Under the pieces are notes generated by a model. The model was not told where the DNA came from. It saw only the letters and a program-made list of their open reading frames with translations, and did no database searches. A stretch of 64,000 bases of DNA from an uncultured Candidatus Saccharibacteria bacterium (GTDB taxonomy: Bacteria; Patescibacteriota; Minisyncoccia; Phycocordibacterales; PALSA-1337): NCBI GenBank assembly GCA_964495685.1, contig CAZBVQ010000001.1:373568-437567 (forward strand), given 5' to 3'. The translations under genes and the position numbers were made by a program. Of the stretch, positions 1 to 53,218 are shown in pieces (position 1 is the first letter of the stretch; every line of letters starts with the position of its first letter).

Positions 1-736
1 AGCTGATTGGTATGATGATGTGGTCAATGACAGCGACTCATACCAGAAGAATGTCCTCCTGCCCAACATGCTCCGCATCGTCGATCCCAAGAAAGGGCTG
101 ACCGTGCTCGATGTCGCCTGCGGCCAAGGATATTTCTCCCGTTTTTTCGCTGGTGCTGGCGCCAAGGTCATCGCTACTGATATTTCTATCGAACTCATCG
201 AGAAGGCGCAGGCGGGTCAGATCAAGGAGTCGCCGGTCGAATATTACGTCGCTCCTGCTGACGATCTCTCCATCATCGAACCATCCTCGATCGATGTGGC
301 TACTATTGTCCTCGCACTTCAGAATATCGAAAACCTTCAAGGCACTCTCTCCGAAATTGCACGTGTCCTCAAACCGGGTGGCCGACTGGTGTTCGTGCTC
401 AATCATCCAGCATTCCGCATACCACAACGCTCCGATTGGGGATGGGATGACAAAAATGCCACGCAATATCGTCGTATCGATTCGTATATATCAGATGATC
501 GGGTGAAGATCGACATGACACCAGGCGAGAAAGATGACAAGAAAAAGAAGTTCACGGTTTCATTCCACCGACCGCTGCAAGTATATTTCAAAGCCATGAA
601 CAAAGCAGGTCTCGCGGTGACGCGTCTCGAGGAATGGGTGTCACACAAGAAAAGCCAGGAAGGTCCGCGCGCGGCAGAAGAAGATCGTATGAGGAAAGAG
701 ATTCCGTTGTTTGTGTGTGTGGAGTGTAGGAAATAA
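1..736 (+). CDS. Class I SAM-dependent methyltransferase (5'-partial; frame is open from the window edge)
   Basis: SAM-binding motif VLDVACGQGYFS followed by an acidic loop (ATDIS). The reading frame is open upstream of the first in-frame GTG/ATG, so the gene probably starts before the window. Confidence 0.6.
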   Translation, partial: ADWYDDVVNDSDSYQKNVLLPNMLRIVDPKKGLTVLDVACGQGYFSRFFAGAGAKVIATDISIELIEKAQAGQIKESPVEYYVAPADDLSIIEPSSIDVATIVLALQNIENLQGTLSEIARVLKPGGRLVFVLNHPAFRIPQRSDWGWDDKNATQYRRIDSYISDDRVKIDMTPGEKDDKKKKFTVSFHRPLQVYFKAMNKAGLAVTRLEEWVSHKKSQEGPRAAEEDRMRKEIPLFVCVECRK

Positions 737-21387: not shown

Positions 21388-21690
21388 GTTGTGTGTTTGC
21401 GCAGGTCTACCCTGCGCATGTTATTGATAAATAAAACGCCCGAGTATATACGCGAAAATTCACGTACATACTCGGGCGGAGAACTAATGTTCTTCGTGGT
21501 TCCACCGAGTTTCCCTTCGACAAGCGTAGGGCACTCTTTGGTACAGATTGGTCTCGACTGTGAGATCGGATGGATCCGACTACGATTGGTGGCCGTAGCG
21601 ACTTCTGTGCAGGTAATTATATAATTTCTTTTATATTCAGTAAATAGGATGTGTAGTTGCGCATACATAAATATTATGGCACACTATTTT
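21388..21690 (-). promoter_or_regulatory. Putative T-box leader of thrS (minus strand)
   Basis: Minus-strand CUCGGUGGAACCACG at plus 21494-21512 resembles the T-box consensus AGGGUGGNACCGCG. Downstream terminator at 21437-21478 (CGCCCGAGUAU ... AUACUCGGGCG plus U-run), whose 3' arm is mimicked by the T-box CUCGG (antiterminator logic). An upstream hairpin loop GCCACCAAU contains the Thr codon ACC followed by A. Confidence 0.4.
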
Positions 21691-24963: not shown

Positions 24964-25056
24964 AAGAGCATTTACCGGGCTCTCTTTCAAAGAGAGGTCT
25001 TCGGGAAACATTGGTGCTATTCTATTGCTGAAACTGAGGAGGAATAGGGGTATTTT

Positions 25057-25094
25057 CCAGGCCCGGCCTAGAAAATATTCTAGGCCGGGCCTGG
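25057..25094. repeat. 38-nt perfect palindrome CCAGGCCCGGCCTAGAAAATATTCTAGGCCGGGCCTGG followed by a T-run
   Basis: Perfect dyad including the centre AATATT. Lies between the SBP gene stop and the rplU extended -10 element (TGTATAATG at about 25118-25126). Confidence 0.7.
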
Positions 25095-25116
25095 AATTTG
25101 CGTTTTTTGGGTCTTC

Positions 25117-27501: not shown

Positions 27502-27572
27502 GTGCTGATTGTATCACAGGGGCAGGAATGTGTCGGCGCGCACGTTATGAAATGGGTGGAAAAGGTGTGGAG

Positions 27573-27679
27573 ATCCCCGACAATGTATGCGCACAGGCCC
27601 CAGAAAGGAGAACTTCGTGGTATGCGGAGTGAGTGCCAAGATCTGTTTCTGGGGCCTGTGCGCATACATTGTTGGGGAT
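27573..27679 (+). ncRNA. Structured hairpin element, copy 1: 34-bp near-perfect stem enclosing a conserved ~33-nt core
   Basis: Left arm 27573-27606 pairs with right arm 27646-27679 (one G-T position, which is G-U on the plus transcript). Loop 27607-27645 contains CTTCGTGGTATGCGGAGTGAGTGCCAAGATC, nearly identical to the loop of copy 2. Confidence 0.45.
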
Positions 27680-27816
27680 TTTCATGGCGAATGTTGTTGT
27701 TTACTAGACCATATAAATAAATCTTCAGCGAATCTTCAGCGAATCTTCATTTTTTCTTCATGCACCATTGGTACTGTACATACATTATTAGCAACCCATA
27801 ATACACTTCCAATTTC

Positions 27817-35619: not shown

Positions 35620-35984
35620 TGGCTCCGCGGCCAGGGATCGAACCTGGGACATCCTCGTTACGTTTGGTCTCCTATTACTAGGGGTACGGACTATATCATC
35701 TCCAATGAAACTCGTGTCAAAGCTTCATTACGGAGTAAGGCGCTTCCCAGAGCATATTGCTCCAGTACTCCCACAAGGGGATAGTCTCTGAACCTTTCCC
35801 TCACATGGATTCTTGCTATGTCATCGGTGTACATAACAAAGATTCATGTGAGGGACTTGGCTGCTGATTGCCCACATTTGCATGTTGGGGTTTCCGGCAA
35901 TTCACCTTATTTTTCAGCCTAAGTTTCCTTAGGAAGCTGCTATTCTCTAACAGCGAGGCGCTCTACCGGCTGAGCTACCGCGGA
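35620..35984 (-). tRNA. tRNA-Asn (anticodon GUU) interrupted by a 289-nt group I intron
   Basis: 5' exon at plus 35950-35984 gives TCCGCGG-TA-GCTC-AGCCGGTA-GAGC-G-CCTCG-CTGT. 3' exon at plus 35620-35660 gives TAA-CGAGG-ATGTC-CCAGG-TTCGATC-CCTGG-CCGCGGA-G-CCA. Spliced cloverleaf is canonical with anticodon loop CUGUUAA. Intron (plus 35661-35949) follows U35 and ends in G. P1 is GCTGT/GCAGC with U-G, P2 is CCTAAG-GAAA-CTTAGG. Core elements P AATTGCCGGAAA, Q AATCAGCAGC, R GTTCAGAGACTA and S GATATAGTCC are all present. Confidence 0.8.
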
Positions 35985-43178: not shown

Positions 43179-44192
43179 ATGGGTATCTTTTCCTCGAAAC
43201 TTGGCATCGATCTTGGTACAGCCAATACGCTGGTGTATATTCCCGGCAAGGGCATCGTGCTCAATGAACCCTCAGTCGTAGCTGTTTCTGAAGTAGACAA
43301 GAAAGTGTTGGCGGTCGGTAATGAAGCCAAAGAAATGGTCGGCCGTACGCCAGACAATATTGTGGCGTATCGTCCTATGCGTGATGGTGTCATCGCCGAC
43401 TATCGCGTGACCGAAGCGATGTTGCGTTACTTCATCGACAAAGCTCTCGGTCGTTTTTCATTTTTCAAGCCTGATGTCATGGTCTCTGTGCCGGCAGGAA
43501 TTACGTCGACCGAACGTCGCGCCGTCGTCGAAGCCGCCCTCCGTGCTGGTGCCAAGAATGCGTATGTGGTCAAAGAACCAATTCTTGCTGCTATCGGTGC
43601 TGGTATCCCGATCCAGGAGCCGCGCGGACATATGATTGTCGATATTGGTGGTGGTACTACGGACGTGGCAGTCATTTCGCTTGGTGGTATCGTCTCGTCG
43701 ACGTCGGTCAAGGTTGCAGGCAACAAAGTAGATGCCGCCATCGCTGATTATGTGAAGAAAACGTTTAACCTAGCTATCGGCGAGCACATGGCTGAAATCA
43801 TCAAGATTACTATTGGCTCCGCAATTCCGCTCGATCAAGAACTTGCCATGCAAGTCAAAGGTCGTGATTTTATTTCAGGCTTGCCTCGCTCTACCGAAAT
43901 CAAAACTAATGAGATTGTCAAAGCTATCGCTGCTCCTCTTCGCGATATGATCAAGGCGATCAAGGATGTGCTCCAAGAAACTCCTCCAGAATTGGCTGCT
44001 GATATTATCGATCAGGGTATTACGATGACTGGTGGTTCGTCCATGCTCCGCAATTTGCCCGAATTGGTATTCCGCCGCACTGGCGTGAAGGCACAGTTGG
44101 CTGATGAGCCACTTCTCTGTGTGGTGAAGGGGACAGGTATAGCGCTGGAGCATTTGAATGTGTATAAGAAGACGATGATGAGTAAACGCTAA
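43179..44192 (+). CDS. mreB: Rod-shape determining protein MreB (paralog 1)
   Basis: Actin-fold motifs (GIDLGTANTLVY; MIVDIGGGTTDVAVIS; MTGGSSML). Promoter TTGAAC-16-TATAGT at 43141-43168. Confidence 0.9.
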   Translation: MGIFSSKLGIDLGTANTLVYIPGKGIVLNEPSVVAVSEVDKKVLAVGNEAKEMVGRTPDNIVAYRPMRDGVIADYRVTEAMLRYFIDKALGRFSFFKPDVMVSVPAGITSTERRAVVEAALRAGAKNAYVVKEPILAAIGAGIPIQEPRGHMIVDIGGGTTDVAVISLGGIVSSTSVKVAGNKVDAAIADYVKKTFNLAIGEHMAEIIKITIGSAIPLDQELAMQVKGRDFISGLPRSTEIKTNEIVKAIAAPLRDMIKAIKDVLQETPPELAADIIDQGITMTGGSSMLRNLPELVFRRTGVKAQLADEPLLCVVKGTGIALEHLNVYKKTMMSKR

Positions 44193-44956: not shown

Positions 44957-44965
44957 CAGACGGAG

Positions 44966-45076
44966 CACCAGGCGAACATGTGAGTGAGGAAGCCTTGCGA
45001 GTGCGACTGGCACGAGCACGAGGAATTTTTCAGCAGAAAAATATCCGTGCTTCCGAAGTCACATGTTCGCCTGGTG
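44966..45076. repeat. Long inverted repeat (18-bp perfect arms CACCAGGCGAACATGTGA / TCACATGTTCGCCTGGTG plus extra GGAAG/CTTCC) enclosing about 75 nt, just upstream of the frr promoter
   Basis: Arms at 44966-44983 and 45059-45076. Followed by the extended -10 element TGCTATAAT at 45083-45091. Confidence 0.6.
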
Positions 45077-45122
45077 CGGTAGCTGTGCTATAATCGCTTC
45101 ATATAACCTAACCACTACCTTT

Positions 45123-48654: not shown

Positions 48655-49722
48655 ATGACACTCAAGGAGCGCACAGAAAAAATACTCGGCCGTTTTTCGA
48701 ATGATATTGGTATCGATCTTGGCACAGCCAATACACTGGTCTATGTGCGCGGCAAAGGCATCGTCGTCAACGAACCATCAGTCGTCGCCGTCAACCAGAA
48801 GACGGGTCAGGTCGTCGCCGTAGGTCAGACTGCCAAGGATATGCTCGGACGCACACCTCAGCACATCACCGCAGTCCGTCCGTTGGTCGATGGAGTCATC
48901 TCTGATTTCGAGGTGACCGAAGAAATGCTCGCTTATCTGATGCGACGTGCCGGCGACTATATGCCCAAGAAATTCCTCGGCCCACGTGTGGTCGTCGGCG
49001 TACCTTCTGGGGTGACCAACGTCGAGGTACGTGCTGTCCGTGATGCTACAAAAAATGCTGGTGCCCGCGAAGTCTACATCGTCGAGCAGCCGATGGCGGG
49101 AGCCATCGGTATCCGCCTCCCAGTCCATGATCCGGTGGGCAGTATGATCATAGATATTGGTGGTGGTACGACTGATATCGCTGTTATTTCATTGGGCGGT
49201 ATTGTCCGTTCCAAGAATTTGAAAATAGCTGGTGACAAACTCAACAACGATATTATTTCCTACATTCGTAACGAATTCAAAATCCTGATTGGTGAGACTA
49301 CTGCAGAACAGGTCAAGAAAGACGTCGGCGCTGTCATTCCAGGCGAACCACTCGAGACGACTATCCGTGGTCGCGATCTCATCACGGGTTTGCCGCGCGA
49401 AGTGATCATTACCGACTCAGATATTCGAGAAGCTATCGGCCAATCCGTCGATACCTTGGTCGAAGCTACCAAAGAGGTACTCGAGACGACTCCGCCAGAA
49501 ATTCTTGCCGATGTGATGAAGCGAGGTATCCACTTGGTCGGTGGTGGTGCACTCATCAAAGGTCTCGATCAGCTTCTCATTGATACGCTCAATATTCCCG
49601 TCACCATTGCTGAAGATCCACTCACTGCTATTGCGCGTGGCGCGGGTGTGATCCTCGAAGATTTGGACAAGTTCCGTTCAGTACTTATTGAGAGTGAAGA
49701 TGACTTACCTTCAAACAAGTAG
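48655..49722 (+). CDS. mreB: Rod-shape determining protein MreB (paralog 2, in the mreBCD-mrdA operon)
   Basis: Same actin-fold motifs as paralog 1, about 65-70% identical over the core. Confidence 0.9.
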   Translation: MTLKERTEKILGRFSNDIGIDLGTANTLVYVRGKGIVVNEPSVVAVNQKTGQVVAVGQTAKDMLGRTPQHITAVRPLVDGVISDFEVTEEMLAYLMRRAGDYMPKKFLGPRVVVGVPSGVTNVEVRAVRDATKNAGAREVYIVEQPMAGAIGIRLPVHDPVGSMIIDIGGGTTDIAVISLGGIVRSKNLKIAGDKLNNDIISYIRNEFKILIGETTAEQVKKDVGAVIPGEPLETTIRGRDLITGLPREVIITDSDIREAIGQSVDTLVEATKEVLETTPPEILADVMKRGIHLVGGGALIKGLDQLLIDTLNIPVTIAEDPLTAIARGAGVILEDLDKFRSVLIESEDDLPSNK

Positions 49723-50812: not shown

Positions 50813-52540
50813 GTGCCCATGCCATTCTCCCTCCAACGACTGATGTTCTGGCGTCGACGTCGCCGACGAGTGACGGAGATCGCTCCGGATGAAGTCATGT
50901 TGGATTCCAGCAACTTGCCGGAATTCGATACATCTCAATTCGAAGGACGTCTGGAGAAACCAATATCCAAGGTCTCACTATTCATGGTGGTGATCATATT
51001 CGGCATCATCGCAGTCGTCTATATTATACAGACGGGTAACCTGCAGATCGCTCATGGTGATGAGTATCGTGGACGAAGTGAACGTAATCTTCTCCGCCCA
51101 GTACCCATCTTCGCTGGCCGCGGAGTTATCGAAGATCGCATCGGACACCTCTTGGCATGGAACGCACCATCTCAGACTGTATCAGCCACCGCCACCGACG
51201 AAGTCGTCGCTACACGGCAATATGCCACTACTACTGGCCTCTCGCACGTTCTGGGATATGTGAAATATCCTTCGAAAGACAAAAACGGATTCTACTATCA
51301 AGATGATTTCGAGGGTGTGGCAGGTGCCGAAAAATATTTCGACCCCAACCTTCAAGGCAGGAATGGTTCTCGGCTCATCGAAGTCGATGCACATGGCGAT
51401 ATTATTTCAGGGAATGTTGTTCGGCCTCCGGTACAAGGTGCTTCCGTCACGTTGTCGATCGATAGTCGAGTCCAGTCCTCATTGTATGATCACATCAAAG
51501 GCATTGCAGAAAGTGTCGGATTTGCCGGTGGTGCAGGTGTCATTATCGATGTGCGCACTGGCGAACTTATCGCACTCACCAGTTACCCAGAATATAGCTC
51601 TCAAGTCATGTCTGACAGGAATGACACGGCGCGTATCAAGTCGTTGTTGGCCAACAAAGATTTACCATTCCTCAATCGTGCTGTCGATGGTCTCTACACA
51701 CCGGGTTCGGTGGTCAAACCGTACGTGGCTTTGGCCGCATTGACTGAACATACGATTGATCCCAGCACAGTTATTGTTACTACGGGTTCAGTTTCTATTC
51801 CCAACCCGTATGATCCGACCAAGAGTACCGTTTTCAAAGATTGGAAGAATAATGGGTCACTTGATATGCGCCATGCTATTGCCGCATCATCTGACGCCTA
51901 TTTCTATATCATTGGCGGTGGCTACAAAGATCAGAAAGGTCTCGGTATAGCCAACATCGACAAATATCTACGCATGTTCGGCCTGGGTTCACAGATTCCA
52001 GACTCATTCGCCCAGGGCAAGATCGGTACTATCCCGACACCAGAATGGAAAAAGACGACATTCAACGAAGATTGGTATCTCGGAAATACGTATCATACCG
52101 CCATTGGGCAGTATGGTTTCCAGGTCACTCCTATCCAGATGGCACGTGCCGTAGCGGCGATGGCCAATAGTGGTATTCTACTCACGCCAACTATCATCAA
52201 AGATGATGGTCCTCACGTCGATCGTTTCATCGACGCCATTCCTGCCAAGAATTTCCAGATCGTCCGGGAAGGTATGCGTCTCAGTGTCACCGAAGGTACT
52301 AGCAAAGCGCTCAATGTGCCTTTCACGAATGTGGCAGGAAAGTCTGGTACTGCTGAGCTTGGTGTCAGCAAGGATAAGGTCAACTCCTGGATTACCGGTT
52401 TCTGGCCGTATGAGAATCCCAAATATGCATTCACAGTGATGCTCGAAAAAGGTTCAGTGCACAACCTCATTGGTGCTGCAGCAGCCATGCGTCAGCAGCT
52501 CGATTGGATGGGGGAGCATACACCTGAGTACTTCAAGTAA
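50813..52540 (+). CDS. mrdA: Penicillin-binding protein 2 (elongasome transpeptidase)
   Basis: N-terminal TM, dimerisation domain, transpeptidase motifs SxxK (GSVVKP), SxN (SSDAYF), KSG (GKSGTA). Confidence 0.85.
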   Translation: MPMPFSLQRLMFWRRRRRRVTEIAPDEVMLDSSNLPEFDTSQFEGRLEKPISKVSLFMVVIIFGIIAVVYIIQTGNLQIAHGDEYRGRSERNLLRPVPIFAGRGVIEDRIGHLLAWNAPSQTVSATATDEVVATRQYATTTGLSHVLGYVKYPSKDKNGFYYQDDFEGVAGAEKYFDPNLQGRNGSRLIEVDAHGDIISGNVVRPPVQGASVTLSIDSRVQSSLYDHIKGIAESVGFAGGAGVIIDVRTGELIALTSYPEYSSQVMSDRNDTARIKSLLANKDLPFLNRAVDGLYTPGSVVKPYVALAALTEHTIDPSTVIVTTGSVSIPNPYDPTKSTVFKDWKNNGSLDMRHAIAASSDAYFYIIGGGYKDQKGLGIANIDKYLRMFGLGSQIPDSFAQGKIGTIPTPEWKKTTFNEDWYLGNTYHTAIGQYGFQVTPIQMARAVAAMANSGILLTPTIIKDDGPHVDRFIDAIPAKNFQIVREGMRLSVTEGTSKALNVPFTNVAGKSGTAELGVSKDKVNSWITGFWPYENPKYAFTVMLEKGSVHNLIGAAAAMRQQLDWMGEHTPEYFK

Positions 52541-52551
52541 TCGCTCAATCA

Positions 52552-52659
52552 GGCCGGCAGGAATATGTGCACGTGATGCGAATGAAGGTTAATTCGTGGT
52601 ATGCGGAGTATGTTCCAAGATCGGTTCATTCGCATCACGTGCGCATATTCCTGCCGGCC
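52552..52659 (+). ncRNA. Structured hairpin element, copy 2: 35-bp near-perfect stem enclosing the conserved ~33-nt core
   Basis: Left arm 52552-52586 pairs with right arm 52625-52659 (one T-G position, which is U-G on the plus transcript). Loop 52587-52624 contains ATTCGTGGTATGCGGAGTATGTTCCAAGATC. Confidence 0.45.
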
Positions 52660-52750
52660 CCCTTTATACACTTTTCGTATTGTGGCATAAGGGTTTTGGT
52701 GCTAGAATAACGGTCTATTAACCTAGGAACTAAGGTCTCTTTTTATTGCC

Positions 52751-53218
52751 ATGTCTACCGAAGTACAGTATCTCACTAATGAAAAATTTGCGGAGCTTAC
52801 CAAAGAGCTCAAACATCTCAAGACCAATCGGCGCAAAGAAGTAGCGGATCAGCTCGAATATGCCAAGAAACTCGGCGATCTTTCTGAAAATGCTGAGTAT
52901 CATCAGGCTCGCGAAGAGCAGGCGGAAGTAGAGGATCGTATCGGTCGTCTCGAAAATCTCCTCAAGAATGCCACCATTATGAAATCGGGCGGCGGTGATG
53001 TGGTGTCAGTCGGTTCTACCGTACACCTCAAAAAAGCTGGTGAGAATCGCTCATATATTTATATTATCGTTGGTTCAGAAGAAGCTGATATGACACAGGG
53101 CAAGGTTTCCAACATGTCACCTCTCGGTGCAGCACTCCTCGGACACAAGGTTGCTGATACGATCAAGGTGAATACTCCCAAGGGCGTGGTCGCATATACC
53201 ATCGATCAGATCAAATAA
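52751..53218 (+). CDS. greA: Transcription elongation factor GreA
   Basis: N-terminal coiled-coil with acidic tip (GDLSENAEYHQAREEQ) and C-terminal FKBP-like domain. Confidence 0.9.
   Translation: MSTEVQYLTNEKFAELTKELKHLKTNRRKEVADQLEYAKKLGDLSENAEYHQAREEQAEVEDRIGRLENLLKNATIMKSGGGDVVSVGSTVHLKKAGENRSYIYIIVGSEEADMTQGKVSNMSPLGAALLGHKVADTIKVNTPKGVVAYTIDQIK

Follow-up and report, generated by a model that had tools for sequence, protein, structure and literature searches.

A long hairpin between mrdA and greA in a Patescibacteria genome and related hairpins with a conserved loop

Repeats located at the 3' ends of genes are co-transcribed with them and modulate mRNA stability (PMC3184786). In chloroplasts, stem-loops undergo 'minute inversions' that flip the loop between related genomes (PMC7393888), and for inversions in the 3' stem-loops this source cites Kelchner and Wendel (1996) and Kim and Lee (2005). 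We searched the literature on hairpin or repeat elements of CPR/Patescibacteria and found nothing specific. Patescibacteria cannot be grown alone and, to our knowledge, next to nothing is known of how these microbes form RNA 3' ends and process RNA, or of their repeat elements.

Chloroplast 3' stem-loops are inefficient terminators and act as 3'-end stabilisers or processing signals. Transcripts of Correia-type elements can be substrates of RNase III, for which a long dsRNA duplex is the textbook substrate. At the DNA level, a conserved loop over variable stems is the pattern found at hairpin origins nicked by HUH enzymes. The hairpin family described here is undescribed although its kind, intergenic palindromic hairpin elements, is already known, and several of its properties are unusual.

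The hairpin and its genomic context

The hairpin under study (c2) covers 108 nt, positions 52552-52659 of the window, i.e., the whole stretch of 64,000 nt that was analyzed. The inverted-repeat scan and the fold give a 35-bp stem, with the 5' arm at 52552-52586 and the 3' arm at 52625-52659 (both on the plus strand), closing a 38-nt apical loop (52587-52624, +) of sequence GGTTAATTCGTGGTATGCGGAGTATGTTCCAAGATCGG, the inner 31 nt of which had been quoted in the first-pass annotation. The 35-bp arms with one U-G described there were recovered by both methods: 34 of the pairs are Watson-Crick and one is a U-G on the plus strand (arms 97% complementary), the arms starting with GGCCGGC and finishing with GCCGGCC and pairing free of bulges. 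The minimum free energy of the RNA was -75.3 kcal/mol, compared with -38.4 +/- 3.4 in 200 dinucleotide shuffles, none of which equalled it (z = -11), and that of the DNA was -45.2 kcal/mol (z = -9.7). Two segments deserve mention, the alternating purine-pyrimidine tract ATATGTGCACGTG of the 5' arm (52563-52575, +), mirrored in the 3' arm and detected by a run-length test against nulls, and a conserved 30-nt core of the loop, TTCGTGGTATGCGGAGTatGTtCCAAGATC (52593-52622, +). The locus is identical, loop orientation included, in four assemblies of the same strain obtained from different samples.

By Pfam, MreB, MreC and PBP2/MrdA are encoded upstream of c2, and GreA and then LysRS downstream. The gene for PBP2/mrdA (50813-52540, +, Transpeptidase and PBP_dimer domains) has its stop codon 11 nt before the hairpin, and the ATG of greA (52751-53218, +) is found 91 nt past the stem, so that the position first assigned to the element, directly after mreBCD-mrdA and some 90 nt before greA, was right. 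Homologs of GreA and DnaB assign the genome to Patescibacteria (CPR), in the vicinity of Candidatus Taylorbacteria. Two MreB paralogs are encoded 4.5 kb from each other (43179-44192 and 48655-49722, both +), of which just the second has mreC, an mreD-like ORF and mrdA after it. Reading by eye and the alignment of relatives located a probable greA promoter at 52680-52708 (+), with TTGTGG, a 17-nt spacer ending in TGc (a TG extension) and TAGAAT. It begins 20 nt 3' of c2 and aligns with the TTGAAw-N17-TAnAAT conserved in relatives; its score falls under the threshold of the consensus promoter scan. The hairpin occupies the sole free space between the mrdA stop codon and this promoter and, being upstream of it, would be part of the 3' untranslated region of the mreBCD-mrdA mRNA.

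A family with a conserved loop

The loop core occurs exactly twice in the window, in c2 and at 27614-27643, with 0 occurrences expected by chance. The latter belongs to c1 (27568-27684, +), a hairpin with 39-bp arms, three G-U pairs and a 39-nt loop located in the gap between dnaB and a divergent pilin-like gene, on the upstream side of the dnaB promoter and outside any obvious transcription unit. The two cores, both inside long hairpins, are identical at 27 of 30 bases. When the stems were registered from the loop outward, 13 of 35 pairs were the same, 19 had changed on both sides, 3 were wobbles and none was broken, while the basal parts of the stems are unrelated. The first-pass proposal that c2 is the second member of a hairpin family is therefore borne out, with further homologs in a sister species, in a relative with a 91% identical DnaB and in a distant Paceibacteria lineage. 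Copy number is low, with c1 and c2 only in 82 kb of the source genome, of which the 18 kb beyond the window have no additional copy. A scan over 1.17 Mb with a degenerate pattern of loop core plus arms matched only c1, c2 and L072a, a greA-site hairpin of a distant clade. The exact core pattern GTGGTATGCGGAGTNNNNNCCAAG had 0 matches in the GTDB representative genomes. It had one in a viral and one in a JGI metagenome collection, both the same unrelated coding sequence without hairpin and therefore regarded as chance; a match with one mismatch at window positions 412-425 was also inside a coding sequence, without hairpin.

Some other features were observed around c1 and elsewhere in the window. 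A dnaB promoter-like site at 27508-27536 (-), CCGACA-17-TACAAT with TG extension, ends 6 nt before the dnaB start codon (27501), and its sequence is kept in relatives (ctgattgtatcacagg); the short gap and this conservation suggest that the dnaB mRNA may be leaderless. Upstream of the pilin-like gene, at 27718-27752 (+), there are about 2.5 repeats of the tandem motif AATCTTCAGCG, and related repeats, TTCTTCA/ATCTTCAGC, are in the same place in L084, L085 and L089, and this repeat could be regulatory. A minus-strand tRNA gene with exons at about 35985-35960 and 35667-35615 is split by a group I intron (35668-35959, -; 81 bits in Rfam), the D-arm TAGCTCAGCCGGTAGAGC being upstream and the T-arm with CCA, GGTTCGATCCCTGGCCGCGGAGCCA, downstream; ARAGORN calls the tRNA only with the intron removed. 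About 100 nt beyond the window start, in the same genome (L088, 12120-12236), a 19-bp inverted repeat surrounds a 79-nt segment with a tRNA T-arm-like GGTTCGATTCCCG, which may be a tRNA-associated integration scar.

To place c2 among relatives we used 68 GreA neighbourhoods of GTDB species representatives, to which contigs from closer relatives were added. In about 1.2 Mb of these genomes the hairpin finder located some 20 long hairpins with near-perfect arms of 35-48 bp and loops of 29-43 nt, or of 72-105 nt when a nested hairpin is held inside. This wider class is mostly placed between a stop codon and the following promoter: 11 of 16 begin at -1 to 14 nt relative to the stop codon of the preceding gene, and 70-90 nt remain to the next gene. 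We have found a hairpin exactly at the greA site in six genomes (the window, L015, L016, L019, L035 and L072), and in all six the distance from its end to the greA ATG is 81-92 nt, with the conserved promoter following closely. At the empty greA sites the promoter abuts the PBP2 stop codon. Among the relatives there are also two-storey hairpins (L034, 1706-1853 and 8038-8191; L035, 5496-5653; L019, 1551-1721), in which outer arms of 32-41 bp enclose a 'loop' of 72-105 nt that is itself a hairpin of about 30 bp; the two L034 copies have in common the apex and the distal arms and not the basal arms.

The presence of the hairpins is patchy. The greA site is filled in 6 and empty in about 66 of 72 genomes, and a tree of GreA, LysRS and PBP2 shows the filled ones dispersed, each next to a sister that is empty. 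In the closest relative, with a GreA 88% identical, no hairpin is present at this site (z = -0.9), and at the c1 site there is an orthologous one with conserved flanks and the stem core TGCGCACAGG in common. The c1 orthologs are those of L084 and L091, both with conserved flanks. This dnaB site is thus filled in the window, L084 and L091, holds only a 13-bp version in L085 and is empty in L089 and L086. Apparent decayed remnants at the empty sister sites of L076 and L041 fell short of significance when compared with dinucleotide shuffles (P = 0.43 and 0.29), which leaves recurrent gain indistinguishable from recurrent loss. With most relatives having no hairpin there, these comparisons indicate that the element is dispensable at the greA site.

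The loops can be inverted between related copies. Those of c1 and its ortholog in L084 align in inverted orientation (p = 0.005) and not directly (p = 0.99), those of the orthologs L015a and L016 are identical at 31 of 36 positions when one is inverted, and L015a is also inverted with respect to its paralog L015b. Even the loop of L072a matches the core of c1 and c2 when inverted (16/20, p = 0.002), its motif being antisense to PBP2 and greA. The orientation relative to the flanking genes is consequently variable, as seen in L015a versus L016 and in c1 versus L084. In the stems of L015a and L016 we counted, anchoring the hairpin pair at the loop (a four-member MAFFT alignment misaligned the unrelated arms), 24 pairs that are the same, 14 two-sided compensatory changes, none one-sided and 1 broken, with the changes concentrated in the basal half. 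The pattern indicates that the arms are kept paired, by compensatory change and selection or by arm-to-arm conversion, and that the loop flips occasionally.

The two strands of the hairpins are not equivalent. In the four copies with imperfect arms, the strand with the loop in the TTCGTGGTATGCGG orientation is always the more stable and the one that carries the G-U pairs, with values for the motif and the other strand of -88.6 and -68.6 kcal/mol in c1, -75.3 and -68.9 in c2, -85.0 and -74.2 in L084 and -63.7 and -60.1 in L091, a small sample (n = 4) in which the orientation call of L091 is marginal (p = 0.06). In L084 the motif is on the opposite strand relative to the flanks, and the stability bias has flipped along with the loop. 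A strand-specific form, single-stranded and with a putative sequence-specific partner, is suggested by the conservation of the loop motif and by the better folding of its strand. Besides, the longest alternating purine-pyrimidine run averages 8.2 nt over 19 hairpins, compared with 5.2-5.5 in the nulls, of which 0 of 5000 and 0 of 3000 reached this value. The run usually begins 11-19 nt from the base of the stem (ATATGTGCACGTG in c2, ATGTATGCGCACA in c1).

Three long hairpins of like geometry came out of the window scan. The third, c3 (44965-45077, +), is located 8 nt past the stop codon of a holB-like gene and before frr, and has a different structured apex, GCCUUGCGAG..CGACUGG..GAGCACGAGGAAUUUUUCAGCAGAAAAAUAUCCGUGCU. 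With L059 (15725-15845, -) this apex has 96% identity over 48 nt, and with L062 (16135-16245, -) 88% over 32-35 nt, both being genomes whose GreA is just 66-67% identical to that of the window. Compensatory changes are seen in the apical helix (GUGC/GCAC, GCUC/GAGC, GCGC/GCGC), with covariation in the outer stems. Synteny is lacking between the sites, which are holB-frr in the window and ftsI-like PBP-murE/F in L059 and L062, and the orientation relative to the neighbours is opposite. The c3 apex is absent from viral contigs, and an identity with SRP RNA or another known RNA was rejected, with no Rfam support even at E <= 10. We consider the c3 type a candidate novel structured RNA or element.

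What the hairpin may be

A canonical intrinsic terminator is a short GC-rich stem with a 3-8-nt loop and a T/U-run right after the stem. In c2 the stem has 35 bp, the loop 38 nt, the sequence that follows is CCCTTTATACACTTTT, with at most 4 T in the 8-nt windows starting 0-2 nt past the stem, and the terminator scan returned 0 sites. Terminators of GC-stem plus T-run are enriched elsewhere in the genome (32 versus 15.4 and 28 versus 17.3 expected). Of the earlier suggestion that c2 might be an operon-end terminator, the location at the end of the operon stands, 11 nt past the mrdA stop, while the canonical terminator does not. Taking together the missing T-run, the empty scan, the location of c1 between divergent promoters and the empty sites of most close relatives, a dedicated and necessary terminator is not supported. 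In the same window, two 19-bp GC-rich stems with 4-nt loops and then T-runs, at 25055-25096 (+) and 21437-21478 (-), represent canonical terminators of very great stem length and do not belong to the hairpin family.

Other classes were also examined. Rfam 15 had no match to c1, c2 or c3 even at E <= 10, only spurious sub-threshold snoRNA or miRNA scores, and the phage and plasmid databases had none to c2. Integron attC sites have R''/R' core sites (RYYYAAC...GTTRRRY), extrahelical bases and a cassette array or integrase nearby; we rejected this class for c2, with arms GGCCGGC...GCCGGCC, no bulges and housekeeping flanks. A promoter-bearing inverton was rejected as well: the scan found no promoter-like site in 52300-52900, neither eye nor scan gave a convincing promoter inside the loop on either strand, and the orientation is the same in the four assemblies of the strain. 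No other match to the arms exists in the window or in the 68 related loci, so a guide function is unsupported. A strict MITE (Correia/ERIC) would have terminal inverted repeats conserved between copies, and in c1 and c2 just 13 of 35 pairs are the same; there is no direct repeat resembling a target-site duplication at the boundaries of c2, L015a, L016, L072a, L035 or L019, nor near-identical copies indicating recent transposition. The presence/absence polymorphism at one site among relatives that is expected of MITEs is seen at both the greA and the dnaB sites. REP/BIME elements, which come in many copies sharing a palindrome and with an associated RAYT transposase, were discarded on the basis of the 2 copies in 82 kb and their different stems. 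RNase III, on the other hand, acts on at least about 20 bp of near-perfect dsRNA, and c2 offers a predicted duplex of 35 bp in a lineage that has the enzyme: genes with the Ribonuclease_3 catalytic domain and dsrm/dsRBD were found in 8 related loci, although rnc was not found in the 82 kb of the source genome.

The best-supported reading of c2 is a putative 3'-end hairpin or processing site. More specifically, we would give a little less than an even chance to c2 being a member of a low-copy, dispersed, REP/ERIC-like palindromic family of Paceibacteria (Patescibacteria/CPR) that works as a 3'-end dsRNA hairpin, either a barrier or an RNase III site. RNA polymerase reading out of mreBCD-mrdA would transcribe the hairpin, and the RNA would fold into the 35-bp duplex capped by the 38-nt loop. 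Exonucleases degrading from 3' to 5' would be blocked by this duplex, and/or RNase III would cleave it, so that the 3' end of the operon mRNA would be fixed or processed there and read-through into greA limited (a partial insulation), in a way different from canonical termination. A processing or stabilising role of 35 bp of dsRNA is plausible. REP sequences within about 15 nt of stop codons reportedly affect translation termination, and the base of c2, being just 11 nt from the stop codon, may interfere with terminating ribosomes. The adjacency to the stop codon may also just reflect that the remainder of the spacer is taken up by the promoter.

The loop orientation is not fixed with respect to the flanking genes, which is a poor fit to a loop acting only in a sense 3' untranslated region, and around c1 and its orthologs, between divergent promoters, read-through transcription is not expected. 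Together with the dispensability of the element, this leaves real weight to the rival explanations. The one with most of it, although on the whole unlikely, is palindromic DNA that is selfish or neutral and has no host function, persisting in permissive spacers, kept paired by arm-to-arm conversion or template switching, with the loop flips as a by-product and loss by deletion. It would account for the patchy presence with empty sister lineages at the greA and dnaB sites, the inverted loops of orthologs, the basal arms swapped wholesale and still paired, the lack of synteny of the c3-type sites and the low copy number. It accommodates less well a loop core far better conserved than the arms (27/30 versus 13/35) and recognisable in a distant clade, or mismatches that, read on the motif strand, are G-U in 4 of 4 copies, and neither target-site duplications, conserved terminal repeats nor near-identical copies were found. 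At the other extreme, a canonical Rho-independent terminator of the mreBCD-mrdA operon has in its favor a stable hairpin 11 nt past the last stop codon of the operon. It is very improbable, being contradicted by the sequence (T-run, stem, loop and scan, as described above), in a genome where T-run terminators are enriched and with relatives that have no hairpin at the greA site.

It is quite improbable, although it deserves to be mentioned, that we are dealing with strand-specific structured elements particular to CPR, in which a dedicated partner would recognise the conserved apex TCGWGGTAWGCGGWGT, the long duplex with its alternating tract serving as a platform for processing or recognition; they could be either small RNAs matured by RNase III or a mobile hairpin with a recognised loop and arms rebuilt locally, which would explain a conserved apex over unrelated basal stems. 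Less probable again would be an independent small RNA gene on the loop-motif strand, the stem serving for processing and the conserved apex, bound by a protein or pairing with a target, being the functional part. The motif strand does fold better whatever its orientation to the neighbours, c1 is outside any obvious transcription unit, and the c3-type apex, 96% conserved with compensatory changes in the apical helix, is found in genomes with 66-67% identical GreA and in either orientation. The scan, however, found no promoter-like site upstream of c2 and there is no terminator after it, most relatives have no element, and the inner structure of the loop differs, with an inner hairpin predicted in c2 that the folds of the c1 and L072a loops do not have. 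Slightly lower still we would put, as doubtful, a site acting at the DNA level, i.e., an ssDNA hairpin or duplex motif for a recombinase, HUH-type nuclease or nucleoid protein (the loop might hold an origin-like or nicking site, or the element be a small invertible switch). The likeness to HUH-nicked hairpin origins in loop and stems, the loop inversions, the enrichment of the alternating tract in the arms and the high stability of the DNA hairpin argue for it. Against it are the spacer of 38 nt, a length that disfavours cruciform extrusion, the lack of a recombinase or HUH gene nearby, the identical orientation in four independent assemblies of the same strain and a loop without promoter-like sequence.

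The family is easily recognised and its evolution is unusual, with a conserved loop that flips, stems that are replaced and remain paired and a Z-prone stem tract. If the hairpins do shape transcript ends or yield small RNAs, they would provide a first handle on post-transcriptional control in Patescibacteria. If they are only selfish DNA, they would mark hot spots of recombination and turnover and advise caution in the annotation and assembly of these small genomes.

Comparison with described systems

The stems processed by RNase III, such as those of rRNA precursors and the R sites of phage T7, resemble c2 in having more than 20 bp of near-perfect dsRNA, and the lineage encodes the enzyme; they differ in that no mature RNA is known to be released from c2, the cleavage of which is putative. 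Correia (CREE) and other MITEs are likewise about 100-150 bp long, with long inverted arms, intergenic and polymorphic for insertion or absence, but the hairpins analyzed here have neither terminal repeats that are conserved nor a target-site duplication (TA or other), and no related transposase was seen.

The REP/BIME and ERIC sequences of Enterobacteria are also extragenic, often just past stop codons, co-transcribed and variable among relatives (PMC3184786). They form stable hairpins at mRNA 3' ends that are able to alter mRNA stability (PMC3184786), and this is the likeness that we propose for c2. Their copies are numerous and have a common stem sequence, whereas the stems of c1 and c2 are nearly all different, it is the loop that is conserved and there are 2 in 82 kb. 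The hairpins described here, with a stem of 35-48 bp and a loop of about 38 nt, are also much longer than REP.

The flipping of the loop has its counterpart in the 'minute inversions' of chloroplasts (PMC7393888). The inverted-repeat stem-loops at chloroplast 3' ends are noncoding and close to gene ends, and their loops flip while the arms stay paired, as happens here. They belong to other organisms and their sequence is unrelated, and in the hairpins that we describe the sequence of the loop is in addition kept across paralogs and clades.
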